DNA from: Candidatus Magasanikiibacteriota bacterium
Lineage (GTDB): Bacteria; Patescibacteriota; Patescibacteriia; Magasanikbacterales; UBA922
NCBI GenBank assembly: GCA_042218065.1
Contig: JBDGRL010000012.1
Location: 4,244-68,243, forward strand
Direction of reading: 5' to 3'
DNA length: 64,000 bases
Shown here: one piece after another, positions 3,671-44,803 of the stretch
Layout: each line of letters begins with the position of its first letter
Position numbering within the stretch: position 1 is the stretch's first letter
Notes under the pieces: generated by a model
Told to the model about the DNA's origin: nothing
Databases searched by the model: none
Seen by the model: the letters and a program-made list of their open reading frames with translations, nothing else
Position numbers and translations under genes: made by a program

Positions 3671-5284
3671 TTATATTTCATCCGGCTCGTCAACTTCTGC
3701 TTCAATGTCAGTCCAACTTAAGTATTTTCGCTTTGCGCTAGATTGTAGCTGTTGTAGCTCTTTCGTTTTTAGTAGATACGAGATTAGGATATAAACCATC
3801 AGTCCCAATCCTCCTAAAATTAGACCATAGAAGAAAGTGAGAATCATACCTTCAAAGTTTGTTAATCGATTAAGATAAGGTTCAGCTAGATACATTGTCA
3901 GCCACATGAAGATGCTAGCAGGTGTGATTTTAGCTATGAGCTTGAGGAGTTTGCTCTCGCGTATTGATCCTAATTTGTTTCTCAACAAAAGCCAAAGCAG
4001 TGCGAACTGGCATATCATAGAAATCGAAAACGCCATCGCTAGACCGCTGATCCCAAAGCTGTCCTTTAGCAACAGTGCGGCCACCAAATTTATAATCATT
4101 CCTATTGTTGCAACTACAAATGGACCCCATGTATCCTTCAGTGCAAAAAAGCCTCGGATAAGCACAGGGATCAAACTCTGAGCAAAGAGAGATACTGAAA
4201 AGAAGGCAAGTGCTGATGCGGTCTGCTTTATAGACTGCCGGTCAAATTTACCGGAACCAAAAACCACTTCTACTATCTCGACTCTAAGCAGAATAAAGAG
4301 AATTGTTATTGGTATGATCAAAAATAATACCTTTCGGATGGTGCTGACTAGAAGCTCAGTCATATCTTCCGCTTTTTCTTTTGCTATCAGCTCGGAGAGA
4401 GCAGGAAAAGAGGCAAGAGCAAATGAGTAACCTATAATTCCTACAGGAAAGTACTGTATATTTTTTGCAAAATTAAAGATAGTTAGGCTTCCTGCAGCCA
4501 AGGTTGAGGCGAGGATTGTCATAATCAAAAAATTCATCTGATTTGCTGCCAGACCCAGAGTTCTGGGGATCATCATTTTACCTATTTTTTTCAGATGCGG
4601 ATTGTGCCAGGGAAGAATAAATTTATACTCAAAACCGAGATGAAACAAAGTGGGAACTTGTATTGCTAGATGCAGGAAAGCGCCTAAAATTACACCCCAA
4701 GCAAGACCAATTTCTCCAAAGTGAGGAACGAAAAATAATGCTCCTGCGATAATCCCTAGGTTATACACTACAGGAGTAAAGGAGTAAACTATGAATGATT
4801 TAAATGACTGCAGTACACCGCTGGCGATGCTACTAAGCCCCAACAAGATTGGGCTTAAAAACATCACTCGGGTCATTTTTATTGTTAGATCTAATTTTTT
4901 TCCGCTATAACCCGGAACCACCCACTGCATTAATTGTGGGGTGAAGATGAATAAAATAGTACATATGACAATGAGTGATATTCCCAATATATTCAACACC
5001 CCGTTAGTGACCTTCCAGGCCTCGTCCGTATCATCTTCTAGAAGCTCTTTAAACACCGGGATAAAACCGGCAGATAAAGCTCCGACGACCAGCATATTAT
5101 ATACCAAATCCGGCACACGAAAGGCTGCAAAATAAGCATCCAAAGTATTCCCAGCTCCGAACTGGTGGGCAAAAATTTTATCCCGCGCTAAACCGATAAA
5201 ACGGGAGACTAAAGAAGCTGCCCCTACTGCAATAGCGGCTCCGGTAGTGCTTTTAATTTTACTTTTAATCAGTTTCTTTATCAT
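3671..5284 (-). CDS. murJ: Lipid II flippase MurJ/MviN
   Basis: 537-aa polytopic protein. The N-terminus SRFIGLARDKIFAHQFGAGNTLDAYFAAFRVPD is typical of MurJ. Confidence 0.9.
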   Translation of the reverse strand: MIKKLIKSKIKSTTGAAIAVGAASLVSRFIGLARDKIFAHQFGAGNTLDAYFAAFRVPDLVYNMLVVGALSAGFIPVFKELLEDDTDEAWKVTNGVLNILGISLIVICTILFIFTPQLMQWVVPGYSGKKLDLTIKMTRVMFLSPILLGLSSIASGVLQSFKSFIVYSFTPVVYNLGIIAGALFFVPHFGEIGLAWGVILGAFLHLAIQVPTLFHLGFEYKFILPWHNPHLKKIGKMMIPRTLGLAANQMNFLIMTILASTLAAGSLTIFNFAKNIQYFPVGIIGYSFALASFPALSELIAKEKAEDMTELLVSTIRKVLFLIIPITILFILLRVEIVEVVFGSGKFDRQSIKQTASALAFFSVSLFAQSLIPVLIRGFFALKDTWGPFVVATIGMIINLVAALLLKDSFGISGLAMAFSISMICQFALLWLLLRNKLGSIRESKLLKLIAKITPASIFMWLTMYLAEPYLNRLTNFEGMILTFFYGLILGGLGLMVYILISYLLKTKELQQLQSSAKRKYLSWTDIEAEVDEPDEI

Positions 5285-18068: not shown

Positions 18069-18097
18069 TTGACAAAGAATAAATATTATGCTAAGTT
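18069..18097 (+). promoter_or_regulatory. Sigma70-like promoter with extended -10
   Basis: TTGACA (18069-18074), a 17-nt spacer ending TGc, then TAAGTT (18092-18097). The SD GGAGG lies at 18153-18157. Confidence 0.5.
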
Positions 18098-20885: not shown

Positions 20886-21233
20886 ATGTTTTATCAGAAA
20901 CTAATAGGTAGATTTTTTTTCAGTTTTGTTTATACACCTTTCTGGTGGTATACAAGAGGTCTTGTCAGAGCTTTTTATTTTTGCAAAAGATTATTAAAAA
21001 TTGGAAATAAAAACTTAGTACCGATGCTTTGGTTGAGGAATATTTTTGTCCCTATGTTTGGTCAAAGAGATTGGCAGGGCAGAATTGTTAGTTTTTTTAT
21101 GCGGCTAGCGAATGTTTTTGGTAGGAGCTTAGCTTTATTTTTGTGGTTTATAATCGTATCTCTTGTATTTTTTGTATGGGTATCTTTGCCTGTCTTTGTT
21201 TTGACTATGCTTTTATTTTCTTTATTTAATTGA
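20886..21233 (+). CDS. Hypothetical small membrane protein
   Basis: 115 aa with two or three hydrophobic segments. It abuts or overlaps the downstream AAA+ gene. Confidence 0.6.
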   Translation: MFYQKLIGRFFFSFVYTPFWWYTRGLVRAFYFCKRLLKIGNKNLVPMLWLRNIFVPMFGQRDWQGRIVSFFMRLANVFGRSLALFLWFIIVSLVFFVWVSLPVFVLTMLLFSLFN

Positions 21234-21238
21234 AGGTT

Positions 21239-23917
21239 ATGGATTTTTCAGAGACAGAAAAATTACCACTTCAGAGGCAAGATGGACAGGTGTACTTTCA
21301 GGAGGGTAAGAATGCTTGGTATTTCGGCCAGAAATTAGATCATAATGAGATTCAATATCGTAGGTATAAGGGTTTAGTAGATAAATTACAGATCGGTTTA
21401 TTGACATTGTTTGCTTTATTTTGCTTCGTTTTATTTTATTTGTTTTTACCAGAATCTTCTTTATTATTCTCTTTTAAGTTTTGGTTGAACCCCGATCCTC
21501 TTCTGGCTTGGTTTTGGTTGGGGGTATTAAGTATTTTATATGTTTGGGCTAGAGTTCTGATTTTAAACCATAAGGACTTAAAGGTATTTGATTACCAGGA
21601 GAAAGATTTTAAGCAGAAAAATCCCTCTGGATCTGATTTATCAAAATCTGGAGCTGAAAATTTATCTAAAAAGAGCAATAAAGATTTAACTAAATATTTC
21701 ACAAAAGACTGTAGGAAAATTATAGATAGAGCTTATAGACTAGCTGATAAGAATAATATAAAAGAGGTAAGTCCAGAAGTTATTTTTTATTCACTTTTAT
21801 TTAATGAAAGAATTTCTAGTATTTTTGTAAGATTGAATTTACCAGTAGATCAGATTAAAGAGAAGTTTTCTGAAATTATTTCGGGAAGTACTCAATTAGA
21901 ACCTAAACTAAAAGACGGTTTTTATCAGACAATTTTTCTTGCATATAAGATAGCACGAAAAGAGAAACAAGAACATATTGATGTTACAGAACTTATCTTA
22001 GCTACAGTGCAAAATTCAAATCAGCTTCAAGAATTTCTTTATGATTTAAAAGTAGATATGGAAAAGTTACAGAAAGTAGTAGAATGGGTTCGTATTAGAT
22101 CTAGATTAAGAAAAAGGTATAGAAGGAGACAAAAAGAGGCTGCTTACAGAAGTGAAGCAGGTATTGATAGAGCAATGACCTCAGTAGCTACCCCTTATTT
22201 AAACAAATTTAGCCAAGATCTTACATTTTTGGCTCAGAAATCTCAACTAGAATCCTGTGTGGCTAGAAAAAAAGAGATTGATGAGATCTTTCGAGTAATA
22301 GAAACAGGAAGACAAAGTGTATTGTTAACTGGAGAAATAGGTGTTGGGAAAAGCACTTTAGTTAATGGTATAGCTCAAAGAATGATAGGCAAAAATATTC
22401 CTAAAGAGTTGGAAGAAAAAAGGCTGGTAAAGCTTTCAATTTCTAAATTACTAGCGGGTACTAGTGTAAGCGGTGCTCAACAAAGGTTAATAAATATAAT
22501 GCAAGAAGTAGCAAAAGCCGGGAATGTCGTGCTATTTATAGATGGCATAGATAAATTGATGGGAGCTCAGACGGATAAAGGTTCCAGTTTAGATGTAGCA
22601 GGAACTTTGGCTGAATACCTAAGTTCTGGTAGATTTTTGACTATCGCAGTTACCACAAATAAAGGGTACAATAGACAGATAGTCAACACTCAGCTGGATA
22701 CGATTTTCTCTCGGGTAAACATAGAAGAGATGGATTTGGACCAAACTATAAAGGTTTTGGAGTCGAAAGCAGGCCTAATTGAACACCAACAAAATATATT
22801 TTTCTCTTATAAGGGACTTGAGCAGTCTGCGGAATTAGCAGAAAAATTTATTCAGCAAAAAAATCTACCAGAGAGTGCTATTGAAATAATGACTCAAGCA
22901 GCTAGCTATAGTAGAAGCCAGAAAGGTGAGAAGTCTTTGGTACTAGAAGAAGATGTATCAGAGGTGGTGAGTGATAAGACCGGCATTCCTACTACTTCGT
23001 TGACGGAAGAGGAGTCAGAGAAACTAATGAAACTGGAAGAAAAAATGCATGAAAGAATTATTGGTCAAGATGAGGCGGTGGAAATGGTATCAAACGCGCT
23101 TCGTAGAGCCAGGACAGAGGTTCGATCTGAGGACAAGCCAATCTCTACTTTTCTCTTCTTGGGACCAACCGGGGTGGGTAAGACTGAGCTAGCAAAAACA
23201 ATTTCTTCGACTTATTTTGGTGGAGAAGAGAAAATGATCCGCATAGATATGAGTGAATACCAAGACAAACAATCTGTTTATAGATTAATAGGTCAACCTA
23301 ATGAGCAAGGTACCGGCCTTCTTACTCAGCAAGTCCGCGAAAATCCATTTTCGTTGTTGTTGTTAGATGAGTTGGAAAAATCAAGTCAGGATGTACAAAA
23401 TCTATTCTTACAAGCCTTTGATGACGGGAAGTTGACTGATAGCGTAGGTAGAGAGGTTGATTTTACCAACACCATCATTATTGCTACCTCTAATGCAGGT
23501 ACTGAGTATGTGCAGAAAGAACTAGAAAAAGGAAAAGAACTAGAAGATATAAAAGAAAAACTCATACGAGGAAAGCTGCAAGAATATTATCCCCCTGAGT
23601 TTTTAAACAGATTTGATGGAATAGTGCTGTTTAAATCTTTGAAAAAAGAAGAAGTAAAGCAAATTGCTGATCTGATGCTGGAGCGAGTACGAGAAGATAT
23701 GGAAGATAAGGGTATAAAACTAGAAATTACCGAAGGTGCACTTGAGTCTCTAGTAGAAGAAGGCTATGACCCTCAGTTTGGAGCTAGACCGATGCAGAGA
23801 GCTATTCAGGATAATATAGAAAATAAACTAGCAGAACTAGTACTAGAGGATGATTTAGATCGTAGAGATGAGGTAACTATTAAAAAAGATTTTGAGGTAG
23901 ATGTAAAAAGAAAATAA
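21239..23917 (+). CDS. Membrane-anchored Clp/Hsp100-family AAA+ ATPase
   Basis: It has N-terminal TM helices, a Clp_N-like repeat, D1 Walker A GEIGVGKST and D2 GPTGVGKTE/LLLLDELEK. The start is ambiguous between the track TTG at 21230 and the first ATG at 21239. Confidence 0.85.
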   Translation: MDFSETEKLPLQRQDGQVYFQEGKNAWYFGQKLDHNEIQYRRYKGLVDKLQIGLLTLFALFCFVLFYLFLPESSLLFSFKFWLNPDPLLAWFWLGVLSILYVWARVLILNHKDLKVFDYQEKDFKQKNPSGSDLSKSGAENLSKKSNKDLTKYFTKDCRKIIDRAYRLADKNNIKEVSPEVIFYSLLFNERISSIFVRLNLPVDQIKEKFSEIISGSTQLEPKLKDGFYQTIFLAYKIARKEKQEHIDVTELILATVQNSNQLQEFLYDLKVDMEKLQKVVEWVRIRSRLRKRYRRRQKEAAYRSEAGIDRAMTSVATPYLNKFSQDLTFLAQKSQLESCVARKKEIDEIFRVIETGRQSVLLTGEIGVGKSTLVNGIAQRMIGKNIPKELEEKRLVKLSISKLLAGTSVSGAQQRLINIMQEVAKAGNVVLFIDGIDKLMGAQTDKGSSLDVAGTLAEYLSSGRFLTIAVTTNKGYNRQIVNTQLDTIFSRVNIEEMDLDQTIKVLESKAGLIEHQQNIFFSYKGLEQSAELAEKFIQQKNLPESAIEIMTQAASYSRSQKGEKSLVLEEDVSEVVSDKTGIPTTSLTEEESEKLMKLEEKMHERIIGQDEAVEMVSNALRRARTEVRSEDKPISTFLFLGPTGVGKTELAKTISSTYFGGEEKMIRIDMSEYQDKQSVYRLIGQPNEQGTGLLTQQVRENPFSLLLLDELEKSSQDVQNLFLQAFDDGKLTDSVGREVDFTNTIIIATSNAGTEYVQKELEKGKELEDIKEKLIRGKLQEYYPPEFLNRFDGIVLFKSLKKEEVKQIADLMLERVREDMEDKGIKLEITEGALESLVEEGYDPQFGARPMQRAIQDNIENKLAELVLEDDLDRRDEVTIKKDFEVDVKRK

Positions 23918-23933
23918 TTTCATAAATAAAAAT

Positions 23934-23955
23934 AGCCCAGGATTAATTCTGGGCT
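23934..23955. terminator. Hairpin between convergent units (better T-tail on the minus strand)
   Basis: Stem AGCCCA/TGGGCT with a roughly 10-nt loop. The minus strand continues ATTTTTATTTATG. Confidence 0.45.
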
Positions 23956-23982
23956 GTAAATGGAGATTTTTACTATCACCAC

Positions 23983-24093
23983 TTACCACAAACCTTCCTC
24001 GACAGCTGGCTTGTCGATGCCGCCCCCCTTTTTTATCTCTGGTTCAGATTCACCACCATTTTTCTTTTTAAATTCTTTTTCTGTTTTTATCAT
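23983..24093 (-). CDS. Possible 36-aa peptide (MIKTEKEFKKKNGGESEPEIKKGGGIDKPAVEEGLW) or small RNA unit
   Basis: This is an internal ATG of track ORF 23983..24255. On the minus strand a TATAAT sits about 15 nt upstream, and the terminator hairpin at 23934-23955 follows. There is no SD. Confidence 0.3.
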   Translation of the reverse strand: MIKTEKEFKKKNGGESEPEIKKGGGIDKPAVEEGLW

Positions 24094-24180
24094 TATATTT
24101 GTCCAATGATTATAATTTGAGCTATCTTTAATTCGACAATTGCATTTTAAAAATAGTATAAAAATTGTAAAATAAAAGTA

Positions 24181-24202
24181 CCCAGCAGCTTTAGCCACTG
24201 GG
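24181..24202 (-). terminator. Putative terminator of the G+C-rich minus-strand gene
   Basis: The minus strand reads CCCAGtggctaaagctgCTGGG followed by TACTTTTATTTT. It lies 50 nt after the stop at 24252. Confidence 0.45.
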
Positions 24203-24251
24203 TGTGGTGTGACCGTGCCCGTAGAGTCGGCGGGGGTAGGTCGGAATACCC

Positions 24252-24617
24252 TCAATCCTTGAGGTAGACGTCGACGATGATCGGTGGATTTTTGTCATCG
24301 TTGACTACGGTGATTTCGGCTCGGAACCGCTCGTCTTCGAGAGCGAGTTTGTTGAGATCCGTTTCGACCACTTCTTTCATTTCGGCGAGAGCTTCCTCTA
24401 GTGAACTGTAACTTTTATTTGTGGACCATTTCAACCTTTGATTGTAAATCTGTGCGTGTCCCTGCAACCGGGCGCAGTTTGCCGTGTTGGCGATCAGCTG
24501 CCCGTATTGTGAACTGAAATTGTGCGGTACGCACGAATTCGTTGCAAGCACTGTCGGCTTCTTTTTCAGAGCGAGTGTTTGGGCGATCTGGAGCTGTCCT
24601 TGGTCTTCGAACGACAT
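24252..24617 (-). CDS. Hypothetical 121-aa protein encoded in G+C-rich island 1
   Basis: The ATG at 24617 (MSFEDQGQLQ...) is preceded by GAGG plus 6 nt. By hand count, 24 of the first 40 third codon positions are G/C, against AT-rich third positions in neighbouring genes. I recognise no family. Confidence 0.65.
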   Translation of the reverse strand: MSFEDQGQLQIAQTLALKKKPTVLATNSCVPHNFSSQYGQLIANTANCARLQGHAQIYNQRLKWSTNKSYSSLEEALAEMKEVVETDLNKLALEDERFRAEITVVNDDKNPPIIVDVYLKD

Positions 24618-24684
24618 GGTGTACCTCGATTGCTTTGGGAGCGAAAAGAGCGAAACAATTCCCCAGCAACGGGAAATCAAGTGC

Positions 24685-24711
24685 AACTTATCATATATAT
24701 ATTGATGTCAA
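24685..24711 (-). promoter_or_regulatory. Candidate host-type promoter driving the island-1 gene
   Basis: On the minus strand: TTGACA (24711-24706), a 15-nt spacer ending TGa, then TAAGTT (24690-24685). This is the same extended -10 sequence as at 18089-18097. The spacer is shorter than optimal. Confidence 0.35.
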
Positions 24712-24715
24712 GTAA

Positions 24716-25780
24716 ATGACTTTATTTTTTTACTTTTTAACAACTTTTCTGCTAAGTTTAGTTATAACTTGGGCAATTAAACTATATATGAAACAGCAGG
24801 AGATAGTAGACAAAGCCAAAAGCATACAAAGAAAGATACACGATGAGGATAAGCCACTAGGTGGCGGGGCAGCTATTTATTTATCTTTTTTTATACCAAC
24901 AGCTATAGCTTTTTATTTATCGGATATCGGAACCACTATAAATGGTGGCTATTTATTAGCTATAGCTACCAGTGGAGCAATAATTGTTTTAGGTGGGTTA
25001 TTGGATGATATTTATAATCTTAAATACTATTGGCAGTTTATAGCACCCGTGCTGGCTGTGGTCATAATTATTTTTTTTGGTATAGGACCAGAAGTTATTA
25101 CAAACCCGTTCGGAGGAGTTTTTCGTTTGAATAACTTAGTTTTGAGCTTCGGATCCGTTAAATGGGTATTGCTGAGTGATATTATAGTGTTTTTTTGGTT
25201 GATGGGTATGATGTTTACCACTAAACTTTTGGACGGGCTGGACGGATTGGTAGCAGGTTTGGTGGCTATTGGCGGCTTGATGATTTTCTTTTTATCGCTT
25301 CAGCCACAATGGTATCAACCCGAGATGTCGGTTATATCAATCATTTTCGCTGCTAGTTGTCTTGGTTTTTTGTTCTGGAATTGGCATCCAGCAAGTATAT
25401 TCTTGGGGGAGTCTGGCAGTCTGTTGGTTGGATTTATATTAGGTACTTTAGCTATCATATCGGGGGGTAAAATAGCGACTGCATTGTTGGTGATGGGGAT
25501 TCCCATTTTGGATGTTGTCAGGGTTGTGTTTATGCGTGTCAAAAAGGGTAAGTCTGTTTTTAGGGGTGATAAAGAGCATTTACATTTCAGGCTGATAAGT
25601 AATGGGTTGAATCAAAGACAAGCTGTACTTTTATTTTACGCGATATCTTTTTTGTTTGGTATAACTACTTTATTTTTGCAGAGTAAACAGAAACTGATTG
25701 CTTTGCTGTTTTTAGCTGTTTTGATGCTGTTAGTTGGTATATGGTTTTTAAAGCAAGATTCTAATAATACAAGTACTTAA
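24716..25780 (+). CDS. MraY/WecA-family polyprenyl-phosphate HexNAc-1-phosphate transferase
   Basis: 354-aa polytopic protein. Motifs are LLDDIYNLK, KLLDGLDGL, NWHPASIFLGESGS and GDKEHLHFRL. The last motif looks more like WecA than MraY. Confidence 0.85.
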   Translation: MTLFFYFLTTFLLSLVITWAIKLYMKQQEIVDKAKSIQRKIHDEDKPLGGGAAIYLSFFIPTAIAFYLSDIGTTINGGYLLAIATSGAIIVLGGLLDDIYNLKYYWQFIAPVLAVVIIIFFGIGPEVITNPFGGVFRLNNLVLSFGSVKWVLLSDIIVFFWLMGMMFTTKLLDGLDGLVAGLVAIGGLMIFFLSLQPQWYQPEMSVISIIFAASCLGFLFWNWHPASIFLGESGSLLVGFILGTLAIISGGKIATALLVMGIPILDVVRVVFMRVKKGKSVFRGDKEHLHFRLISNGLNQRQAVLLFYAISFLFGITTLFLQSKQKLIALLFLAVLMLLVGIWFLKQDSNNTST

Positions 25781-25789
25781 TATTTTTTT

Positions 25790-26245
25790 ATGAAATTCCG
25801 GTTTAAATACTTATTTGTAGCTGTTTTTTTGGTTTCTGCTGTATTTTTGTATTTCACTTATGATGATTTTGACACAGCTCGGATTAAACTTGGTGGCGAG
25901 CAATTAAGAGTTTTGGTGGCAGAAACTAGATATCAAAAATATAAGGGTTTAGGTGGCAGGAGAGGGTTAGATGAGTATGATGGTATGTTATTTAAGTATT
26001 TTCCTCCAAGAAAAGTCGGGATTGTAATGCGGGATATGAAATTTCCTATTGATATAGTCTGGTTGAATGATGGTAAAGTAGTGGATATAGCTCCAAATGT
26101 TCAACCTCAACCAGATACTACAGAGGAAAAGCTTAAAGTGTATCGTCCTAGAAAAAAGGCTAATTTAGTAGTAGAGCTACCTGCTGGTTGGAGTAAAAAA
26201 CATAGTTTAGAAATAGGAAATAAAATTAAAATTTTAAAACAGTGA
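25790..26245 (+). CDS. DUF192 family protein
   Basis: 151 aa with an N-terminal TM segment. The region GLGGRRGLDEYDGMLFKY...MRDMKFPIDIVWL matches the DUF192 pattern. Confidence 0.75.
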   Translation: MKFRFKYLFVAVFLVSAVFLYFTYDDFDTARIKLGGEQLRVLVAETRYQKYKGLGGRRGLDEYDGMLFKYFPPRKVGIVMRDMKFPIDIVWLNDGKVVDIAPNVQPQPDTTEEKLKVYRPRKKANLVVELPAGWSKKHSLEIGNKIKILKQ

Positions 26246-26259
26246 TTTAAAATAAAAAA

Positions 26260-26282
26260 AGGCTATTCCCCCCAAATAGCCT
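26260..26282. terminator. Bidirectional terminator hairpin between convergent genes
   Basis: An 8-bp stem AGGCTATT/AATAGCCT with a 7-nt C-rich loop, an A-run upstream and a T-rich stretch downstream. Confidence 0.6.
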
Positions 26283-26291
26283 TATTGTCCT

Positions 26292-27143
26292 TCATTTGGT
26301 TTTAATCTTCGGAATTTGTGCAAAGCTTAAGTTTATTTTCAAAGTGCTAAGTTCGACTTTATGATTTAGTCTCTCTATAGGTAGGCTCATCAAAGAAAAC
26401 GCAGCTCTCTTTAGTTCGGGGTACTGGTTTGTCAACACTTGTAAATAAATGATGGCAGATGTCATTTTCTTACATTCTTTCCATCTCTTTACTTCCGGAC
26501 CATTAATCATTTCTTTCGGTATATGGTATTTTTTCGCTTTTTCCAACAGTTTTTGGAGGCTTTTAACATACTCGATTCCAGCCTGTATTCTTTTTTGCTG
26601 TTCGGATAGGAGTTCTTTTATTTCTTTCTCTTTTTTCTCTATTCTTCTAACAGCTTCTTCAATTTCTGGGTCTTCACTATTAATTTTGGATATTTTCTGA
26701 TTTACTTTGTTCAGTTCCTTCTTAAGTTTATTTTTATCCTTCTTCAAACTTTTTCGAAAACCTTTCATCAAATCCATATAATCCTGAAGCTTGCTTTTGA
26801 TCATACTTTCGTGTTCTTCCATGTATTTCTGAACCCACTTGTTACCTTTAGAGCAGATCTTTAGTACTTGTTCTTTTTTTATGCTTTTGCAAGTAGGTGC
26901 TTTACTACTGGTTAACAAGTCGAACCCTTCTTCAGTGATTTTGTTGAGATACTTTCTTGATTTGCTCTTACTGCTCGTTTTTTTGAGGACTTTTTTAGCC
27001 TTACCAATGTTCCAAAAGAATGCCTGCAACTGAGCGCTCTTTTCACAACTCCATTTGTTGTTTTTTTCTGCGAAAGCTTGACAGCAGAAAATAGTGATCA
27101 TAGAAAAGATGGCAACACCGATCGTGTAAGCACTTCTTTTCAT
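26292..27143 (-). CDS. Hypothetical secreted coiled-coil protein
   Basis: 283 aa with a signal peptide and a K/E-rich helical body. A strong SD, AGGAGGTAACA, precedes the ATG. Confidence 0.7.
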   Translation of the reverse strand: MKRSAYTIGVAIFSMITIFCCQAFAEKNNKWSCEKSAQLQAFFWNIGKAKKVLKKTSSKSKSRKYLNKITEEGFDLLTSSKAPTCKSIKKEQVLKICSKGNKWVQKYMEEHESMIKSKLQDYMDLMKGFRKSLKKDKNKLKKELNKVNQKISKINSEDPEIEEAVRRIEKKEKEIKELLSEQQKRIQAGIEYVKSLQKLLEKAKKYHIPKEMINGPEVKRWKECKKMTSAIIYLQVLTNQYPELKRAAFSLMSLPIERLNHKVELSTLKINLSFAQIPKIKTK

Positions 27144-27400
27144 TGTTACCTCCTGAAGCTGTGCTTGGAAGGAGCGAACTTTAGCTCAAGCCTTATAATA
27201 TAAGAAAACTTTAATTTTGTCAATGTAGATACACTAAACTTAAAAATTCGTATTTGTAGAATATAAGACCGTTGTTAACTTAGAGCGTTTAACCTATCTC
27301 TCGATTTAGCATACTTGTCTGAATAGTGAATTTCAAAAGTATTCCAAATCTGCTTAAAGCATTCTTTCAGTGGTTCTTATCTCTGAAAATACTTGCATTC

Positions 27401-27429
27401 TTGACAGAAAGACAAATTTTAGATAAAAT
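27401..27429 (+). promoter_or_regulatory. Sigma70-like promoter of rplU
   Basis: TTGACA (27401-27406), a 17-nt spacer, then TAAAAT (27424-27429). Confidence 0.55.
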
Positions 27430-27457
27430 ACTTGCGCTGAAAATAAGTAAAATAAAT

Positions 27458-27766
27458 ATGTTTGCAGTAATAGAAACAGGAGGGAAACAATACCAAGTCC
27501 AGGAAGGCGATAAAATAAAAGTAGAAAAATTAGAAGCAGATGAGGGTGAGGAAGTAGAGTTTGATCAAGTGTTGTTAATGTCTGATGAAGAAGGGGAAGA
27601 AACCGAGATCGGAACTCCTTATTTAGAAGAAACTGTGACTGCTGAAGTCACAGAACAAGATCGTCACGATAAAGTTGAGGTAGTAAAATTTAAACGAAAG
27701 AATAGATATAAGAAAACTTACGGACACAAGCAGCCTTACACTGAAGTTAAGATTAAGTCCTTGTAG
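27458..27766 (+). CDS. rplU: 50S ribosomal protein L21
   Basis: The internal ATG at 27458 gives MFAVIETGGKQYQVQEGDKIKVEKL, a canonical L21 N-terminus. The track start at 27326 lies upstream of the predicted promoter. No rpmA follows. Confidence 0.92.
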   Translation: MFAVIETGGKQYQVQEGDKIKVEKLEADEGEEVEFDQVLLMSDEEGEETEIGTPYLEETVTAEVTEQDRHDKVEVVKFKRKNRYKKTYGHKQPYTEVKIKSL

Positions 27767-27814
27767 TTAGAGTTGACTTTTAGGTAGTCTGATTTGCCTA
27801 CTTTCCAAAAAGTG

Positions 27815-28429
27815 TTAACCTTCCTTATTTTTTTTAATTCTATTTTTTAAAGCACTTCCTAAAGTTACCTCATCAGCATATTGTAAGCTGCTGCCCATAG
27901 GTAAGCCCCGAGCTAATCTGGAGATAGTAATATCGGGGTTTATTTTTTTTATCTTCTTTTCTATGTACATCATAGTAGTTTCACCGCTCATATCATGGTT
28001 TAAAGCTAAAATAACTTCTTCTACATCTTGGTTTTTAATTCTCTTTAACAATTCTTTTACTTTTAGGTACTTTATATTCTCCTCTTTGTCAGATTCAATT
28101 GTGCCTCGTAGAATGTGGTAGACACCCTGGAAATCTTCTACTTTTTCTATTGCTTGTTTTTGTTGAGGCTGGGCTACTACACAGATAGTAGATTTATCTC
28201 TATTGGAGTTTTTACAAACTTTACAAGGAGATTGATCAGAGAAGTCCCAGCAAACTTCGCAACTTTCTATTTCTTTTAGCAGCTCTTTTAAAGCTACTGC
28301 AAGTTCACCGGCTTCTTTTTTTCCTGATTTTAAGATATGAAAGATATACCTTTCGGCGGTTTTATTACCTACTCCAGGTAAATTCTTAAAAGACTCTTTT
28401 AATTTTTTGATTGGTTCAGGATAAGCCAT
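27815..28429 (-). CDS. recR: Recombination protein RecR
   Basis: 204 aa. It has a helix-hairpin-helix N-terminus (LPGVGNKTAER), a C4 zinc finger (CEVC...CKVC) and a Toprim region. Confidence 0.95.
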   Translation of the reverse strand: MAYPEPIKKLKESFKNLPGVGNKTAERYIFHILKSGKKEAGELAVALKELLKEIESCEVCWDFSDQSPCKVCKNSNRDKSTICVVAQPQQKQAIEKVEDFQGVYHILRGTIESDKEENIKYLKVKELLKRIKNQDVEEVILALNHDMSGETTMMYIEKKIKKINPDITISRLARGLPMGSSLQYADEVTLGSALKNRIKKNKEG

Positions 28430-28439
28430 ATTTGTGAAA

Positions 28440-28462
28440 ATCCCCGCATTTTTTGCGGGGAT
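28440..28462 (-). terminator. Strong hairpin between ybaB and recR
   Basis: A 9-bp stem ATCCCCGCA/TGCGGGGAT with a T5 loop. The minus strand continues TTTCAC, and the hairpin ends about 10 nt before the recR ATG. Confidence 0.4.
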
Positions 28463-28531
28463 AGTATTTATTCATGAATTTTTGAGATAATTTTTAGCTG
28501 TTAGTAAATATTTTGAGAAGAAAATTACTTT

Positions 28532-28840
28532 TTACATTCCAGGAATATCAGGCATCCCACCCATATCTTTCATTTGCTTGGCCATTTTTTTCTGCATTTT
28601 CTTGCTAGCCTTATCATGAGCCTTTTTAATGTATTTTTCTAGTGCACCCTTGTTACTTGGGTCTAGTAAATCTTCGTCTATATCTATATCTACAATATCC
28701 ATATTTCCATTCATCGTAATTTCCACGTTTCCACCTGTTAAGCCTCCTTTAGAAACAGTAATTTCTTCATCCTCTAGTTCACTTTGCATTTCTTTAGCCT
28801 TATCGCGAGCTTCTTTGAATTGTTTTAGTTTGTTGAACAT
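28532..28840 (-). CDS. ybaB: YbaB/EbfC family nucleoid-associated protein
   Basis: 102 aa. The pattern KEMQSELEDEEITVSKGGLTGGNVEITMNGNMDIVDIDID matches YbaB, and the gene sits directly upstream of recR. Confidence 0.9.
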   Translation of the reverse strand: MFNKLKQFKEARDKAKEMQSELEDEEITVSKGGLTGGNVEITMNGNMDIVDIDIDEDLLDPSNKGALEKYIKKAHDKASKKMQKKMAKQMKDMGGMPDIPGM

Positions 28841-28898
28841 AAAATTAAATTATTTATAAACCTCTATTTATTATATCTAATTCTAGCTTATTTTTCAA

Positions 28899-30335
28899 TT
28901 AAACAGGAATATCTTCCTCTTTTACCGGTTCTTGCTGTGATTCTTCAGGAATTTGCTCTTCGTCGTGTGTAGTATCTAAGGATTTGAAGCTAGCAATAGA
29001 CTCATCAAAGAATGTTTTTACCATGCCGGTCGGTCCATTTCTATGTTTTGCTATATGAACTTGAGCTAAGTTTCTTTCGTCCGGGGGAATATCTTCGATT
29101 CGGTAGTTTCTATCGGCAGCTTTTCTATAGATAAACATAACTACATCGGCATCTTGTTCAATGCTACCAGAATCTCTCAAGTGGGATAGCTTAGGGATAG
29201 CTGGTTTATTTTTTTCTACAGCTCGAGACAACTGGGACAAAGCTAATACAGGTACATCTACTTCACGAGCTAGAGCTTTTAGGTTTCTGCTCATCTGGGA
29301 GACTTCTTGAACTCTGTTTCTAGACCCTGATTTTTTATGTGGCTCCATTAATTGCAGGTAGTCTACGATAATCATACCTAGATTATGTTCTGCCTTTAGT
29401 CTTCTGGCTTTAGTTCTTATCTCCATTGCTGTACTTCCAGCAGTATCGTCGATATATATAGGGGCTTCAGATAGTATACCCATAGCATTTCCTATTTTAG
29501 AAAAATCATTACTTTCTGGTTTATCAGATAAATTCCCGGTTCTTAGCTTCCATAGATTTACCTCAGCTTGAGCGCATAATAGTCTATCTACTAGTTGTTC
29601 TTTGCTCATTTCTAGAGAAAACATTCCCACAGGTACATCAGCTTCTACAGCAGCATGTCGAGCAAAATCAAGCGCTAGCGAGGTTTTACCTACTGATGGT
29701 CTAGCGGCTAGGATGATTAAATCTGAACTTTGGAAGCCGGCTAAAATATTGTCGATCTTTTCAAATCCGGTAGGTATACCTCTAAGCTCACCTTTATTAT
29801 CATGTAAGTCGTCTATCCTTTCAAAAGCTTGGTCTAGGACAGACCTAATGTCTGTAAAGTCTTCTTGCAAGTGTCTTTTTCCAACTGAAAAAACTCTTTC
29901 TTGAGCTACATCTAATAATTCATCCAAATCTTGTGATTCTTCATCGTAACTAAGCTTAGAAATTTCGTGTGCAGCCTCAAGCAGCTCTCTAATGATAGAT
30001 TTCTTTTGAACTATATTAGCGTACTCTTCGATATGTGCTGCGGTAGGTACTGAGTTTGATAGTTCAGCCAAATAGCTTTTTCCTCCAATATTTTCAAGTT
30101 TATCCACCTCTTCTAATCTGTTACTAAGGGTGAGCACATCGATCTGCTCGTTGTTGGAATAGAGATCCATCATTGCTTCATAAATTTGCTGATGTTTAAG
30201 TTTGTAGAAATCATTAGCTTCCATTTCATCAGCAATTTTAAACACTGCATCCTCTTCGATAAGGATTGAGCCAAGTAAGCTTTTTTCAGCCTCTATATTG
30301 TGTGGAGGAACTTTTTCTAATTCTTCTTCTGGCAT
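28899..30335 (-). CDS. dnaB: Replicative DNA helicase DnaB
   Basis: 478 aa. It has PPHNIEAEKSLLGSIL, Walker A ARPSVGKTS, IIVDYLQLM and a RecA-like C-terminus. No intein is apparent. Confidence 0.97.
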   Translation of the reverse strand: MPEEELEKVPPHNIEAEKSLLGSILIEEDAVFKIADEMEANDFYKLKHQQIYEAMMDLYSNNEQIDVLTLSNRLEEVDKLENIGGKSYLAELSNSVPTAAHIEEYANIVQKKSIIRELLEAAHEISKLSYDEESQDLDELLDVAQERVFSVGKRHLQEDFTDIRSVLDQAFERIDDLHDNKGELRGIPTGFEKIDNILAGFQSSDLIILAARPSVGKTSLALDFARHAAVEADVPVGMFSLEMSKEQLVDRLLCAQAEVNLWKLRTGNLSDKPESNDFSKIGNAMGILSEAPIYIDDTAGSTAMEIRTKARRLKAEHNLGMIIVDYLQLMEPHKKSGSRNRVQEVSQMSRNLKALAREVDVPVLALSQLSRAVEKNKPAIPKLSHLRDSGSIEQDADVVMFIYRKAADRNYRIEDIPPDERNLAQVHIAKHRNGPTGMVKTFFDESIASFKSLDTTHDEEQIPEESQQEPVKEEDIPV

Positions 30336-30387
30336 GAAATTTATTTATAGTTCTATCTTATATTAATTTGCTATTTTAATCAACAAT

Positions 30388-30416
30388 TTGACATTCATTG
30401 TATTATTATATTTAAT
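30388..30416 (+). promoter_or_regulatory. Sigma70-like promoter
   Basis: TTGACA (30388-30393), a 17-nt spacer, then TTTAAT (30411-30416). The SD GGAGG at 30450-30454 precedes the ATG at 30460. Confidence 0.45.
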
Positions 30417-30459
30417 TAAATCAAGTAGAAGCCAGTCGACCTTTACAACGGAGGTAGTC

Positions 30460-31500
30460 ATGAAGATCTCAACAGAAGAAAAAGGAGAGTTTTTAGAAAT
30501 AAAGCATTACCGTCTAGTAAATAAGGGCTGGGAAGTATTTGTTGCTATTTACAATACTGTTTATAATCCAGTTCTAGATTTAGAAACTTCATTGGGTGGA
30601 GCTCGCATAAGAGATTATGAAAATTCTAAAGATGCTCTTAGGGATGTGAAGAGGTTAGCAAAAGGTATGGCATATAAGAATGCTATTCATAATTGTAACT
30701 TTGGGGGAGCTAAGGCAGTCATCAATGCTAATCCAGAGGATAAATCAGAGAGATTGTTCCTGGAATTTGGACAAATCGTAGAAGACTTGGGTGGTATGTA
30801 TATCACTGCTGAAGATATTGGAACCACTGTGGAGGATATGAAGGTTGTTAATCGTAAAACAGAACATGTCTGTGGGCTTGCAGGTGATCCATCGCCGGTT
30901 ACTGCTCAAGGAGTTATTTACGGATTGAAAGCTTGTTTGGATAATAAATATGAAGATGCTTCTTTGGAAGGATTAGAGACCTTGATTCAAGGTGTTGGTA
31001 AAGTTGGTTCTGTTTTAGCAGAAAAACTTGACGAGAAAGGAGCCATAGTTAAGATTTCCGATGTTGATAACAAAAAAATAGAACGAGTGCGTGAAGAGGT
31101 CCCTTCCGTGGAGGTTGTCGATCTTGATAAGGTGTTTGGAACGAAATTTGATATATTTATCCCCTGTGCTGTTGGGGGTGTAATTAATGACAGAACGATC
31201 GATAAACTTAACTGTGATATTGTTGCAGGTGCTGCCAATAATCCTCTGCAAGATCAAAAACGCCATGCTGAAGAATTAAGACAAAAAGATATTCTTTATG
31301 CTCCTGATTACGTTATCAATGGTGGGGGCTTGATAGCGGTTGTAAAGGAGCTTCAGAGCCAGAGTGGCATAGAAGCTGCTATGGAAGAAGTAAAAGAAAT
31401 CAGGCCCAGGCTGGAGCGTGTTTTTGAAATATCTGAAAGAAGAGGTATCCCTACACAAAAAGCTGCAGATAAGTTAGCAGAAAAGAAGGGGGGATTATAA
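30460..31500 (+). CDS. Glu/Leu/Phe/Val-family amino-acid dehydrogenase
   Basis: The internal ATG at 30460 (MKISTEEKGEF) follows the SD. It has the catalytic-lysine motif NFGGAKAVI and a Rossmann motif GVGKVG. Confidence 0.85.
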   Translation: MKISTEEKGEFLEIKHYRLVNKGWEVFVAIYNTVYNPVLDLETSLGGARIRDYENSKDALRDVKRLAKGMAYKNAIHNCNFGGAKAVINANPEDKSERLFLEFGQIVEDLGGMYITAEDIGTTVEDMKVVNRKTEHVCGLAGDPSPVTAQGVIYGLKACLDNKYEDASLEGLETLIQGVGKVGSVLAEKLDEKGAIVKISDVDNKKIERVREEVPSVEVVDLDKVFGTKFDIFIPCAVGGVINDRTIDKLNCDIVAGAANNPLQDQKRHAEELRQKDILYAPDYVINGGGLIAVVKELQSQSGIEAAMEEVKEIRPRLERVFEISERRGIPTQKAADKLAEKKGGL

Positions 31501-31515
31501 TAATTTTCATATTTA

Positions 31516-31551
31516 AGCCTGTTCGGCAAGGCCGGACAGGCTTTATTTATT
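31516..31551 (+). terminator. Rho-independent terminator
   Basis: A 12-bp stem AGCCTGTTCGGC/GCCGGACAGGCT (one G-U pair) with a 3-nt loop, followed by TTTATTTATT. Confidence 0.7.
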
Positions 31552-31588
31552 GCAAAATAATAAAGTATTTCTTATATTACACCTAATT

Positions 31589-33193
31589 ATGAAAATTTGC
31601 TTTATCCACAATTTATATAAGCCATTTTCTAGAGGTGGAGCAGAGGGATTTGTAGAGAATAAGGCTAAAACATTAAAATCTGAAGGCAAGGAGCCCGTTA
31701 TTATTACAACTAAGCCATGGAGCGGTTGGGGCTGTTGGGATCCGGAAATACAAAAAGAGGATGGGGTTAAAATTTATAGGTTCTGGGTACCAAATTTATG
31801 TTGGTATGGTGACTTAAATAAATATGGAGTTATTTTTAAACTGTTCTGGCATTTTTTTGATATCTTTAATATCTTTAGCGCCTTTATAATCAAGAAAATA
31901 ATAAGAAAAGAAGAGCCAAAAATAGTAAATACTCATAATTTGACCGGAATTGGTTTTTTGCTGCCACGAGTTATAAATCATTTGGATACTATTTTTGTTC
32001 ATACTTTACATGATGTTCAGTTAGTGGAGCCGAGTGGTATATTACACTGGGATCATAAACAAGATAATCTTTTTCAGAAAATATATTCTGGTTTGATGAA
32101 GAATTTATTCGGTTCTCCAGATAAGGTAAACTCTCCTTCTTATTTTCTTAAAGATTTCCATCGAGATAGGGGTTTTTTTAAAGATAGTGAGTGGCAAGTA
32201 AAAGAGTTTGCTCTAAAAAAGAGAAGGAACATAAAACCAAAAAATATAAGTTACTCTCGTATAATTAAATTTTTGTTTGCTGGATCTTTAGAACCACATA
32301 AAGGACTAGGTTCATTAATGAAATCTTGGGATGATTATATTTCGGCAGGGAAAGAGCTTCATATAGCGGGGGATGGTTCAATGAAAGAAAAAATCAGGGA
32401 GTGGTCCAATTATCGCCAAGGAGTAAAAATGTATGGTAGAGTTTCAAAGCAGAAGCTTGATAAGATTTATAATGAGTCTGATGTACTTATTTTTCCTTCA
32501 GTTTGTATAGAAAATAGCCCGGAAGTTATAAAAGAAGCTCTGAATCGTGATTTGTTTGTAGTAGCAGCAGCCACTGGTGGGGTTGTAGAATTTAAAGATT
32601 ACAATGTTTGGTTGTTTGAACCTGGAAATATAGATGAAATGAAGCAAAAGATAGCTGAGGTTAGTGTTAAGGTGCTAATCAAAAGAGGTTTGAGTACCGA
32701 GAAGGAGGATCAGGATATTTTTGAGATTAGATGGGCTAAATATTTCGTTGATTATATAAATGAGAAATTGAACCGAGATTATAGCGTGGAAAATAATAAG
32801 GACCAAAACTCTGATATAGATGTATTTGCGGTATCCAAAAACGAAGATTTTGATACTTTGAATTTGCAATTAACTCAAGTGCATCCTGAGTTTTTTTATG
32901 AAAAAGCTGGGGGTAGATTTGAATTTAAGGATAATTTAGAGAATGAGGAAGATAAAATAGAGATTATGAAAATAAAATATCTGCTTGAAGATGCTATTGA
33001 AAGGAAAAAGAAGGAGTATGCAAAGACTGAAGATATTATACTACTACTTCAGGGTTATTTTCAGGTTAATAAGGTTAAGAGAGCAATAGATTACATGAAT
33101 AAAAAATTTATACAAGATAATAATTTTTCAGGTATATATTATGTATTTCCGGGAATTAACCGAGGTGGTGTTGAGGAGATTAAGGCAATTTAG
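31589..33193 (+). CDS. GT-B fold glycosyltransferase (GT4-like) with a long C-terminal extension
   Basis: The ATG at 31589 gives MKICFIHNLYKPFSRGGAEGF. The region FAGSLEPHKGL...FPSVCIENSPEVIKEAL is an EX7E-type motif. The last roughly 170 aa are unassigned. Confidence 0.8.
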   Translation: MKICFIHNLYKPFSRGGAEGFVENKAKTLKSEGKEPVIITTKPWSGWGCWDPEIQKEDGVKIYRFWVPNLCWYGDLNKYGVIFKLFWHFFDIFNIFSAFIIKKIIRKEEPKIVNTHNLTGIGFLLPRVINHLDTIFVHTLHDVQLVEPSGILHWDHKQDNLFQKIYSGLMKNLFGSPDKVNSPSYFLKDFHRDRGFFKDSEWQVKEFALKKRRNIKPKNISYSRIIKFLFAGSLEPHKGLGSLMKSWDDYISAGKELHIAGDGSMKEKIREWSNYRQGVKMYGRVSKQKLDKIYNESDVLIFPSVCIENSPEVIKEALNRDLFVVAAATGGVVEFKDYNVWLFEPGNIDEMKQKIAEVSVKVLIKRGLSTEKEDQDIFEIRWAKYFVDYINEKLNRDYSVENNKDQNSDIDVFAVSKNEDFDTLNLQLTQVHPEFFYEKAGGRFEFKDNLENEEDKIEIMKIKYLLEDAIERKKKEYAKTEDIILLLQGYFQVNKVKRAIDYMNKKFIQDNNFSGIYYVFPGINRGGVEEIKAI

Positions 33194-41740: not shown

Positions 41741-42476
41741 TACACATCAACCTAAAAGTTACGATGAATTCGATAAACGCGAATGGTGGAATGAAGCTGA
41801 AAAAGAAATATTTAAAAAAGTTACCGCCGAAAAATTACCGGAATCTGTTCCAGATGCTGTAGTCTGGATCGAAGGGGATGCAAGGGATAGAGTAGATAAG
41901 ACTATGGAAGTATTGGAATATTATAACCATAAACCAAAGCTAATTTTATCCGGTGGGCTAGAAGGAAACCCATATCGACCAGACTCTGATTTGCGACCCG
42001 ACGGTGGAAATATCCCTTCCTGGGAGATAAAAGAAGAATTCCTCGAGCGAGGAGTAGATAAGGAAAATATAATTTTAGAAGATGAATCTCGCAACGGTTT
42101 AGAGCAAGCAATCAATGATGTCGAGATTGCAAAGAAACGAGACTATGACAGCTTAGTCTTGGTTGCTTCAACTTGGCATCAGCCGAGGTTATTTTTGACT
42201 TTTGTCAATCAGCTACATGAACAAGATGCTTTGGATATTGAGCTGATTAACCAACCGGAGACCAGCTATCCACTAGATAGAAAAATTCCTGGCCGAGGAA
42301 AAGATACATTGGAGATGCTACAAGAGGATCTCTGGAAAATAACTGAATACAATGAAAATGGAACTGTTGCTAAAGCTGAAGTTGAGCTGGAGTATTTGGA
42401 AAGGTTTGAGAAAGAGTATGAAGAAGTCAGTGAAAAGATTGAAGAAATTGTCGAAGAAATTGAGTTAAAAAAGTAG
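41733..42476 (+). CDS. YdcF/DUF218-family protein
   Basis: 247 aa. The regions PKLILSGGLEG...EDESRNGLEQA...LVLVASTWHQPRLFLTF match the DUF218 pattern. The C-terminal tail is acidic. Confidence 0.65.
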   Translation: MTNTHQPKSYDEFDKREWWNEAEKEIFKKVTAEKLPESVPDAVVWIEGDARDRVDKTMEVLEYYNHKPKLILSGGLEGNPYRPDSDLRPDGGNIPSWEIKEEFLERGVDKENIILEDESRNGLEQAINDVEIAKKRDYDSLVLVASTWHQPRLFLTFVNQLHEQDALDIELINQPETSYPLDRKIPGRGKDTLEMLQEDLWKITEYNENGTVAKAEVELEYLERFEKEYEEVSEKIEEIVEEIELKK

Positions 42477-42477
42477 T

Positions 42478-44010
42478 ATGTCACCCCCAAACCGAGGAGA
42501 TAATAATAGAGATCCTGGAAAATTAGGCGATGAAAATTCTGTAAATAACCCAGAACAAGAACCTGGAGAAGAGTTTTTAGACCCTAATCAAAAACCTGAA
42601 AGATATTATGGTGAGCCTGGTAGTTTGTCTGAAAAGTTAGAGTTAATAGATAAAGTTATTCTAAGAAGAGATGCTGATTTGTTAGTTGAGGAAGACTTAA
42701 TGACTGATGATCAATTGATGGAGTATTTAGTATTGGTTGAGGGTGAGCAGTCAGAGCAGATAGTTCGTATGATTAGAAGTTTTAACGTTTTAGTTGAAGA
42801 CTTTACTTCGCAAGATGAAGATCCTTTTTCAGTTGAGGGAATTAGAAAAATAGCTAATAGAACTGGCTTGGATCGTCCTAGTTTTTTTACCAAGATAGCC
42901 AAAGCATATTTTCACATGGGCCAATTTGATCCCTCTTTTTTTCTTACAAGTGAAAGATTGACAAAAGCGGTACTTGATCTAAAAGAGGGAGAAATTTCTC
43001 CGATAGAAAAAGCTGATGCGGTTGAAACCTTAGGTTCTATTCAGGATAAATTTGGAGATCAAGCCAGTGCTTATAAACTAAAAGAAAGCGGATTACAAGT
43101 TTTAAATCATTCAGATATGCAAGATGTAAATCAAGCATGGTTAAAAGCAAAGTGTCTCCACGGAATGGCTGACTATCAAATAGATGATGAGAGAGTTCCT
43201 AATGAAAAGATAGAAGATAGATTTGAAGAGGTAGAACAGATCCTCCGTGATATTCAAGATGAAGCTCATGTAGCTAGAACAAAACTAGATATAGCAAAGT
43301 TTCATATTCAAAATGAGGATTATAAAAAAGCTCACCAATATGCAAGCCAGGCTTATGAAGAATTACACGAAACTGGTTATATTAGGAAATTGCCGGACGC
43401 AGCTGAGATTATGAGGGATAGTCAAGAACAACTTAGTTCGGATGCACAAATTGTAAGAAGAATAGAACAAATCCAAACGCAAGACAGAGAAGCAATACAA
43501 CCTAAAAGAGAAGATTTAGTTGAACTTAAAGAAACAGAAGAAAAGTTAAAACCAGCTAGAGTTTTATTAAAACTCCCAAGCTCTTCTGGAGAAACTGTGT
43601 ATTTTGTTAAAAAAGATTCTGATGGAAGTTATGAGCTGCCAGAAATTGAAGGTTTGGAGAGTGGGGAGGGTTTTTCTAAGTTTGAAATGTTAAAAAATTT
43701 AGAAAGAATGCTAGCAGAGAATTTATCTGAGTCAGAAGATGCAGAATTAGAAAAAATTACATCTAATCATCCAGTCATTCCTACAGGTGAGGAAAAAAGA
43801 AGTGAAGATCGAGAGGTGCAATTATATAAAATAGATCTAACATCAGGACCACAAGATAAAATACCAGAGGTGAAACCTGGTGAGCTTGAAAAAAAAGAAA
43901 AATTTTGCTATGTTGCTATGAAATATGAAGAATTAAAGAGTAATCAAGAAAATTTTGATTCTGAATCGCAAAAATTGATTGAAGGAGAAATTGAATATCA
44001 AGGAGAGTAA
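42478..44010 (+). CDS. Hypothetical acidic protein
   Basis: 510 aa with host-like AT-rich codon usage. I recognise no motif. Confidence 0.7.
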   Translation: MSPPNRGDNNRDPGKLGDENSVNNPEQEPGEEFLDPNQKPERYYGEPGSLSEKLELIDKVILRRDADLLVEEDLMTDDQLMEYLVLVEGEQSEQIVRMIRSFNVLVEDFTSQDEDPFSVEGIRKIANRTGLDRPSFFTKIAKAYFHMGQFDPSFFLTSERLTKAVLDLKEGEISPIEKADAVETLGSIQDKFGDQASAYKLKESGLQVLNHSDMQDVNQAWLKAKCLHGMADYQIDDERVPNEKIEDRFEEVEQILRDIQDEAHVARTKLDIAKFHIQNEDYKKAHQYASQAYEELHETGYIRKLPDAAEIMRDSQEQLSSDAQIVRRIEQIQTQDREAIQPKREDLVELKETEEKLKPARVLLKLPSSSGETVYFVKKDSDGSYELPEIEGLESGEGFSKFEMLKNLERMLAENLSESEDAELEKITSNHPVIPTGEEKRSEDREVQLYKIDLTSGPQDKIPEVKPGELEKKEKFCYVAMKYEELKSNQENFDSESQKLIEGEIEYQGE

Positions 44011-44791: not shown

Positions 44792-44803
44792 TTGAACACC
44801 AAC

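Follow-up and report, generated by a model that had tools for sequence, protein, structure and literature searches.

The DNA considered here is a 64,000-nt stretch (hereafter the window, to which all positions refer unless stated otherwise) of contig JBDGRL010000012.1 from a Candidatus Magasanikiibacteriota bacterium. Between a clpB-like AAA+ gene (21230–23917, plus strand; assigned by Pfam in the gene tables of relatives) and a gene of the MraY/WecA glycosyltransferase family (PF00953; 24716–25780, plus strand; delimited after the long forms in relatives) it contains a short G+C-rich island, which carries a minus-strand open reading frame (ORF) of 121 codons (24252–24617; ABEJ24_01365 at NCBI, annotated as a hypothetical protein). 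Here we describe the island, its ORF and the junction between the two flanking genes in related genomes, and we discuss the probable origin of the ORF by horizontal acquisition.

The G+C-rich island and its ORF

Maximal-segment analysis places the G+C-rich island at 24181–24673, with a G+C content (GC) of 0.521 compared with 0.364 for the whole window, and in windows of 300 nt GC reaches 0.52 at 24200–24499. By segment strength it ranks second in the 64 kb, behind a segment at 44070–44962 (island 2, described below). A preliminary description of the locus had counted 32 G+C in the 60 nt of 24301–24360, which a recount reproduces, and had taken 15 of 60 as typical of a host line, which is too low: the actual figure is about 22 (60-nt lines: mean 21.8, median 21). 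When the island is delimited by the borders of the blocks homologous to related genomes, the foreign body shrinks to about 24206–24643 (minus strand), comprising the ORF, a 46-nt 3′ untranslated region and some 26 upstream nucleotides, among them the putative Shine–Dalgarno (SD) sequence. Composition shifts abruptly at these same borders.

The ORF runs from an ATG at 24617 to a stop codon at 24254–24252 and is preceded by GAGG (24627–24624), which lies 6 nt upstream of the ATG, as first described. The earlier count of 24 G or C at the third positions of the first 40 codons is likewise correct, and GC at third codon positions (GC3) is 0.60 over the entire ORF, outside the range of 0.20–0.41 found for the 54 other window ORFs of at least 100 aa (two islands excluded). 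GC at first and second codon positions (0.55 and 0.33) lies within the host range, so the anomaly resides in synonymous sites and not in amino-acid content. Scored against a model of host synonymous codon usage, the ORF has z = −6.7, and not one of the 127 host stretches of 121 codons scores as low. For the foreign body, the GC-normalised dinucleotide delta* (0.253) exceeds that of all 421 host windows, and the likelihood under a third-order Markov model of the host gives z = −5.0. The gene had been called compositionally foreign, and GC3, synonymous codon usage and the dinucleotide and tetranucleotide signatures are indeed all atypical.

Three-base periodicity in the ORF (chi2 = 27.5; host median 25.1) is matched by none of 5000 plain shuffles and by none of 300 shuffles that stay open in frame, and on this measure the ORF looks like real coding sequence. 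A core SD precedes any plausible start in only 8 of the 54 window genes, and gene starts are preceded by fewer SD-like trimers than the background would give (6/54, against 25%). By these counts the candidate GAGG SD of the ORF is atypical for an SD-poor genome. Strong SDs in this and the related genomes occur on lineage-specific genes, namely the island ORF, the ORFs found at the same place in relatives, and an ORF at 26292–27143.

Database searches and predicted structure

The searches with the 121-aa protein covered about 15 billion proteins. Among 5.8 billion clusters it matches only itself, and 1.84 billion representatives were searched exhaustively with HMMER. Neither the word-indexed nor the exhaustive HMMER searches returned a significant relative, apart from one repeat artefact. 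This sole other HMMER match, the 1625-aa tandem-repeat protein P0002 (E = 7.7e-11), was rejected because its E-value stems from the summing of near-identical repeat copies: the 12 matched repeats score 0.6–6.2 bits each, and one repeat unit reaches 13.4 bits, corresponding to E ~8e3 at database scale. Nothing significant was found in Pfam, PHROGs, NCBIfam, PADLOC or the PDB sequences, and tblastn against phages, blastn against plasmids and a scan of viral contigs gave no match to the ORF. The initial failure to recognise a protein family extends to family, sequence and mobile-element collections alike, and the protein is a true orphan.

From its sequence, the protein is predicted to be soluble and mildly acidic (pI 5.4; grand average of hydropathy, GRAVY, −0.47; no transmembrane segment). 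The best single-sequence AlphaFold model is helical, with a predicted local distance difference test score (pLDDT) of 60.6 (the other four models are at about 42), and Foldseek against PDB and BFVD retrieves only generic helical bundles (E > 0.5).

The clpB/MraY junction in related genomes

Relatives were found through the MraY-family protein and their contigs fetched, which gave nine distinct genomes with the conserved backbone mraZ–rsmH–two small genes–clpB–gap–MraY-family gene–DUF192 gene–L21–recR–ybaB–dnaB. Gap lengths are counted between the clpB stop and the MraY start. The MraY-family start itself is placed by NCBI at 24788 (an internal Met, giving 330 aa), and relatives keep a 24-residue hydrophobic N-terminal extension; judged by these long forms, a start at 24716 (354 aa) appears more likely. 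On the other side of the gap, the C-terminal 300 aa of ClpB are 65–87% identical in the contigs designated L004–L011.

The gap is shortest in three relatives whose MraY protein is 58% identical to that of the window, measuring 3 nt in L020, 9 nt in L019 and 27 nt in L021, and in all three it is empty. It is also empty in L009 (MraY identity ~65%; 72 nt) and in L005/L006 (~71%; 176 nt). All the filled gaps contain a small ORF in divergent orientation to the MraY gene: a soluble product of 66–85 aa in L007/L008 (67%; 331 nt), a membrane peptide of 71 aa in L010 (~65%; 355 nt), a soluble product of 52–66 aa in L004 (73%; 370 nt) and a membrane peptide of 59 aa in L011 (59%; 628 nt). In the window the gap measures 798 nt and holds the soluble 121-aa product together with a 36-aa ORF. 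The island gene is thus absent from the strictly syntenic site in all nine relative genomes (gaps of 3–628 nt), and the check for high-GC orthologues in relatives found none, leaving the idea of transfer standing. The occupants of the slot have no detectable homology to one another in pairwise comparison (best E = 0.006 in a two-sequence search). The gaps of 3–27 nt in the distant relatives indicate that a tight clpB/MraY junction is the ancestral state and that its expansion is derived in this subclade. The island gene had been proposed to be a recent acquisition from a higher-GC donor; an acquired, foreign origin agrees with these comparisons, but not a one-off insertion, as the site is a hypervariable slot with occupants that differ between lineages.

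Several occupants are G+C-richer than their surroundings. Compared with its own flanking genes, occupant GC3 is 0.60 against 0.32–0.35 in the window, 0.58 against 0.33–0.34 in L007 and 0.75 against 0.38–0.39 in L011, while the L004 occupant (0.21) is fully host-like. Of the five occupants, at least four carry strong SD motifs. A ribbon-helix-helix identity for the gap ORFs of relatives was a guess, dropped for want of support in Pfam and NCBIfam.

The L011 occupant (L011 positions 4590–4790, minus strand) is a mini-gene for a 59-aa membrane peptide with a GC of 0.59 and a GC3 of 0.75 in a genome of about 0.40, equipped with a strong SD (AAGGAGGT) as well as a clean intrinsic terminator.

The clpB-like protein (~890–925 aa) has a conserved N-terminal extension with hydrophobic segments, and its gene stands in a cluster of the division/cell-wall type, mraZ–rsmH–FtsL-like–x–clpB–MraY-family. 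Together with the ancestral abutment on the MraY-family gene, this arrangement suggests co-transcription and a membrane-associated role. A ClpB scan of a genome collection returned only a Thauera ClpB, the lineage of the present genome lying outside that set.

Candidate promoter, leader and terminator

Alignment to relatives reveals a host promoter-like block (24685–24715, minus strand) that adjoins the MraY start codon and reads CTTGACAT-N-ATATATATATGATAAGTT on the minus strand. It comprises a −35 hexamer TTGACA (24711–24706), a TG (24693–24692) and a −10 hexamer TAAGTT (24690–24685), so that the TTGACA and extended −10 element (TGATAAGTT, 24693–24685) first noticed upstream of the ORF are both present. 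The spacing of 15 nt given for them holds from hexamer to hexamer, but the distance to the TG is 12 nt, and the −35 box lies 4 nt, not 5 nt, from the MraY ATG. The −10 sequence had also been said to recur at 18089–18097; this is at chance level, with six TGnTAAGTT sites in the window and 4.1 expected.

The block aligns significantly with its counterpart in L007 with a score of 41 (shuffle maximum 28) and in L004 with a score of 31 (shuffle maximum 31), and L010 contains an exact match to the 24-mer pattern. It is intact where a divergent ORF is present and degenerate or absent in the empty slots of L005 and L009, and since its state tracks occupancy, it probably serves the divergent ORF and not the MraY gene. 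The host-type promoter originally claimed for the gene is supported to this extent, the ORF lying downstream of a promoter-like element conserved in relatives. A metagenome scan with the block returned seven contigs, none with MraY or clpB, which were rejected as chance matches.

The block is followed by a putative 5′ leader (24618–24684, minus strand; assigned by alignment and position) with a small hairpin (24675–24659) and the GAGG motif. The leader includes the 13-mer GTTTCGCTCTTTT (24656–24644), which recurs unchanged in L007, with a borderline score of 26, and in similar form in L004. At the other end of the foreign body lies the predicted intrinsic terminator T2 (24168–24205, minus strand), with a stem-loop at 24203–24180 (10 pairs, 6 of them G-C; loop of 4 nt) and the tail ACTTTTATTT. 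Hairpin and T-tail together form the top terminator-like site of the region. T2 is homologous to the terminator found directly after the clpB stop in L004 (score 44; null maximum 31), so the hairpin first described is real, but the terminator is not the gene's own and corresponds to the clpB-proximal one of that relative. On the basis of these alignments, the promoter block and T2 are taken to be ancestral host sequence.

The segment between the clpB stop and T2 (23918–24167, minus strand) is specific to the window, with no equivalent in relatives. It contains a second terminator hairpin, T1 (23955–23934), whose flanks resemble those of T2, AT-rich promoter-like sites and the 36-aa ORF (24093–23983, minus strand), whose 5′ half is A+T-rich and whose 3′ half is G+C-rich (patch 23978–24036), and which was called by the Logan gene caller. 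The segment is host-like in overall composition and resembles a second insertion that is either older or composite.

Origin of the island gene

We estimate the probability at roughly 0.6 that 24206–24643 is a horizontally acquired single-gene stretch, from a donor of about 50–55% G+C, in a hypervariable slot, specific to the lineage, that separates clpB from the MraY gene. Foreign composition, coding periodicity, absence from relatives, conserved flanking signals and a reproducible assembly are shown by the data; the direction and mechanism of acquisition, the expression of the gene and any function it has are inferred as follows. The two flanking genes would originally have abutted, and in this subclade their junction would have gained a divergent minus-strand expression module consisting of a sigma-70-like promoter at the MraY start, a short leader, a small ORF and a clpB-proximal terminator. 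Within this module, the gene body between the conserved promoter and terminator would have been swapped or lost repeatedly, and the foreign body may have been captured into it or may have replaced an earlier occupant. A plausible route is DNA uptake and illegitimate recombination, followed by spread or replacement through the conserved flanks. Transcription would start downstream of TTGACA-N15-TAAGTT (24711–24685), producing a leader of about 60 nt, and would proceed leftward from ~24680 to ~24175, ending at the hairpin 24203–24180, and translation from the ATG at 24617 would be aided by the GAGG. Our best guess is that the product is a dispensable accessory protein originating from a mobile element or a neighbouring organism. 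The cell on which an episymbiont lives had also been suggested as the donor; the data speak neither for nor against this, and none of the collections searched contains a donor sequence.

A number of observations weigh against acquisition of a functional gene. No donor or homologue was found among the ~15 billion proteins, the phage, plasmid and viral collections or the PDB, so the argument for transfer is drawn only from composition and phyletic absence. There is no target-site duplication, att site or attC site at the island, the borders of which share only a 7-mer, and the neighbouring gene tables contain no integrase or transposase Pfam family, consistent with the earlier remark that no mobility gene lies nearby. 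The 15-nt promoter spacer is suboptimal, and a standard promoter scan (16–18 nt) missed the site. The length of the ORF is in itself not beyond chance, since an open frame this long arises in 11% of dinucleotide shuffles of a 463-nt segment (P = 0.11), and the ORF was skipped by the Logan gene caller. The acquisition cannot be dated as recent, because the nearest relative has an MraY identity of only 73%. Finally, the raised GC3 of three of the five occupants, which belong to different lineages, could mean a local process rather than independent transfers.

Some of these points are also those expected if functionless foreign DNA had been captured at a recombination-prone junction, with the ORF a leftover or fortuitous, an explanation that we consider unlikely although it is the most serious competitor. 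The unremarkable length of the ORF, its omission by the Logan gene caller, its status as a total orphan, its poor fit to host codon usage and the low confidence of its structure model are all compatible with such an origin. Less easily accommodated are the completeness of the ORF and its correct orientation with respect to the conserved promoter and terminator on either side, an ideally spaced SD despite the scarcity of such sites in the genome, the fact that the ORF takes up nearly the entire foreign segment, and the coding-type periodicity in exactly this frame.

It is improbable that the ORF is native, that is, a fast-evolving positional orthologue of the divergent gene in L004 and L007 with a GC raised by a local process, for example GC-biased gene conversion at a recombination hotspot or selection on the mRNA. 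In favour of this reading, relatives share the promoter, the leader start and the terminator, the N-termini are similar (MSFEDQ, MSSEEK, MADREQ), and raised GC3 recurs in the occupants of three lineages. The occupants nevertheless differ in length (52–121 aa) and in kind (soluble or membrane), in addition to their lack of significant pairwise similarity, and the L004 occupant shows none of the GC3 elevation. Moreover, the GC-normalised dinucleotide signature falls outside all host windows, for which GC drift alone would be insufficient, and the change in composition at the homology borders is abrupt. Given this foreign signature and these borders, a local process that raises GC, though possible, is the weaker explanation for the occupants in general. 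As environmental bacteria mostly have a higher G+C content than these genomes, repeated capture of outside DNA would be a simple explanation of the G+C-rich occupants.

A structured non-coding RNA gene with an incidental ORF is highly improbable. G+C-rich islands in AT-rich genomes are frequently structured RNA genes, the ORF length is not significant, and the 3′ tail of island 2 (44795–44970) does fold significantly (z = −3.69). In island 1, however, the folds on both strands are no better than those of dinucleotide shuffles (z = −0.54 and −0.63), the three-base periodicity in the ORF frame is strong and relatives have no conserved counterpart. Rfam detects no family in the whole window at the gathering threshold, and its matches in the region at E <= 10 amount to noise; ARAGORN with default settings finds no tRNA or tmRNA gene in the 64-kb window.

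Least probable of all is an assembly chimera, in which reads of a higher-GC organism were joined into a Magasanikbacteria contig: the contig does come from a metagenome-assembled genome, the composition does switch abruptly, and an independent contig covering island 2 stops exactly at the right edge of that island (44968), but for island 1 a chimera is very unlikely, because both junctions are spanned by an independent assembly (contiguity being judged at the level of assemblies; Logan contig SRR28304479_166432, run SRR28304479, identical to window positions 21350–31780 with 0 mismatches in 10431 nt), the same syntenic backbone continues on either side, so that two precise false joins would be required, and the junctions adjoin promoter and terminator blocks homologous to those of relatives.

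Other features of the window

Island 2 (44070–44962; GC 0.61) is stronger than island 1 and lies between two host genes. Its ORF (44177–44791) encodes a very acidic 204-aa protein (pI 4.3; GC3 0.73; codon usage z = −8.9) that matches only itself in the protein database, and the two islands have no sequence in common. The significantly folding 3′ tail (44795–44970) comprises a long hairpin and a tRNA-like cloverleaf with a canonical T-arm (GCAGG-UUCGAAU-CCUGC) and acceptor stem. The cloverleaf is not called by Rfam or by default ARAGORN; with introns allowed and thresholds lowered, ARAGORN reports a 'tRNA-Leu(gag) with a 62-nt intron', which is dubious. The element could be a degenerate tRNA, the remnant of an integration site or a tRNA-like element. 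The independent Logan contig of this region (L002) is identical to window positions 42027–44968 with 0 mismatches and stops at the right edge of the island, after the tRNA-like element, so that the right junction (44968/44969) is without independent confirmation, unlike the junctions of island 1.

The ORF at 26292–27143 (minus strand) encodes a lysine-rich protein of 283 aa with a hydrophobic N-terminus, preceded by a strong SD (CAGGAGGTAACA) and without a Pfam family. The DUF192 gene and rplU (L21), which it separates, are adjacent in relatives, so it is another lineage-specific insertion in the conserved backbone. The first ~10 kb of the window are moderately G+C-richer (0.39–0.46; GC3 ~0.41) than the remainder.

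Comparison with known systems

Horizontal gene transfer and genomic islands are reported at scale in Patescibacteria, and the same study notes that donors commonly go unrecovered (PMC12455944). Island 1 comes close to horizontally acquired orphan ORFs (ORFans) and to small islets set between conserved core genes, the Patescibacteria islands among them, in its atypical composition, absence from the syntenic site in relatives, shortness, lack of homologues or known function and unrecovered donor. It differs in being only ~440 nt long, with one gene and no mobility genes, and its foreign body is bounded by a conserved host promoter and terminator. Composition-based acquisition of orphans by Patescibacteria is already documented, and the island itself is in this respect ordinary. 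Classical ORFans tend to be A+T-rich, whereas the island gene is richer in G+C than its genome.

The slot resembles the integron platform in having a fixed promoter followed by a promoterless single-gene unit that differs between lineages. Unlike an integron, it has no integron integrase in the flanking gene tables and no RYYYAAC/GTTRRRY attC cores on either strand of 24100–24720, and it is a single slot, not an array, with the terminator part of the fixed frame. An integron gene cassette was ruled out, as neither IntI nor attC is present.

With the hypervariable intergenic regions of streamlined bacteria, flexible islets that homologous recombination exchanges between core genes, it shares conserved core flanks, lineage-specific non-homologous contents and a slot that is sometimes empty; it is far smaller (0.07–0.8 kb), and in its case exchange through the flanks is a proposal. 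The 59–71-aa hydrophobic peptides of the L010 and L011 slots, which come with a strong SD and a terminator of their own, recall type I toxin-like loci. The resemblance is limited to these relatives, the 121-aa protein of the window being soluble, and no antisense RNA partner was identified. The category that fits the locus best is that of a horizontally acquired orphan gene within a small hypervariable islet.

Implications for streamlined genomes

The architecture of the locus is noteworthy in that a tight ancestral junction has turned into a slot with conserved host expression signals, whose contents differ in every sampled lineage and in three of five cases are markedly G+C-richer than the genome and have strong SDs, otherwise scarcely used there. 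A more far-reaching and rather doubtful proposal is that the clpB/mraY junction of this subclade is a fixed 'expression socket', made up of a conserved divergent promoter and a conserved terminator, that repeatedly captures and swaps single foreign genes without a dedicated recombinase, often from higher-GC, SD-using organisms, possibly the host cells of episymbionts. If true, the socket would be an integrase-free functional analogue of the integron in a streamlined, SD-poor genome of the candidate phyla radiation. If denser sampling confirms repeated capture, the slot would provide a natural marker of the DNA that these bacteria take up, of its sources and of the expression of foreign genes.

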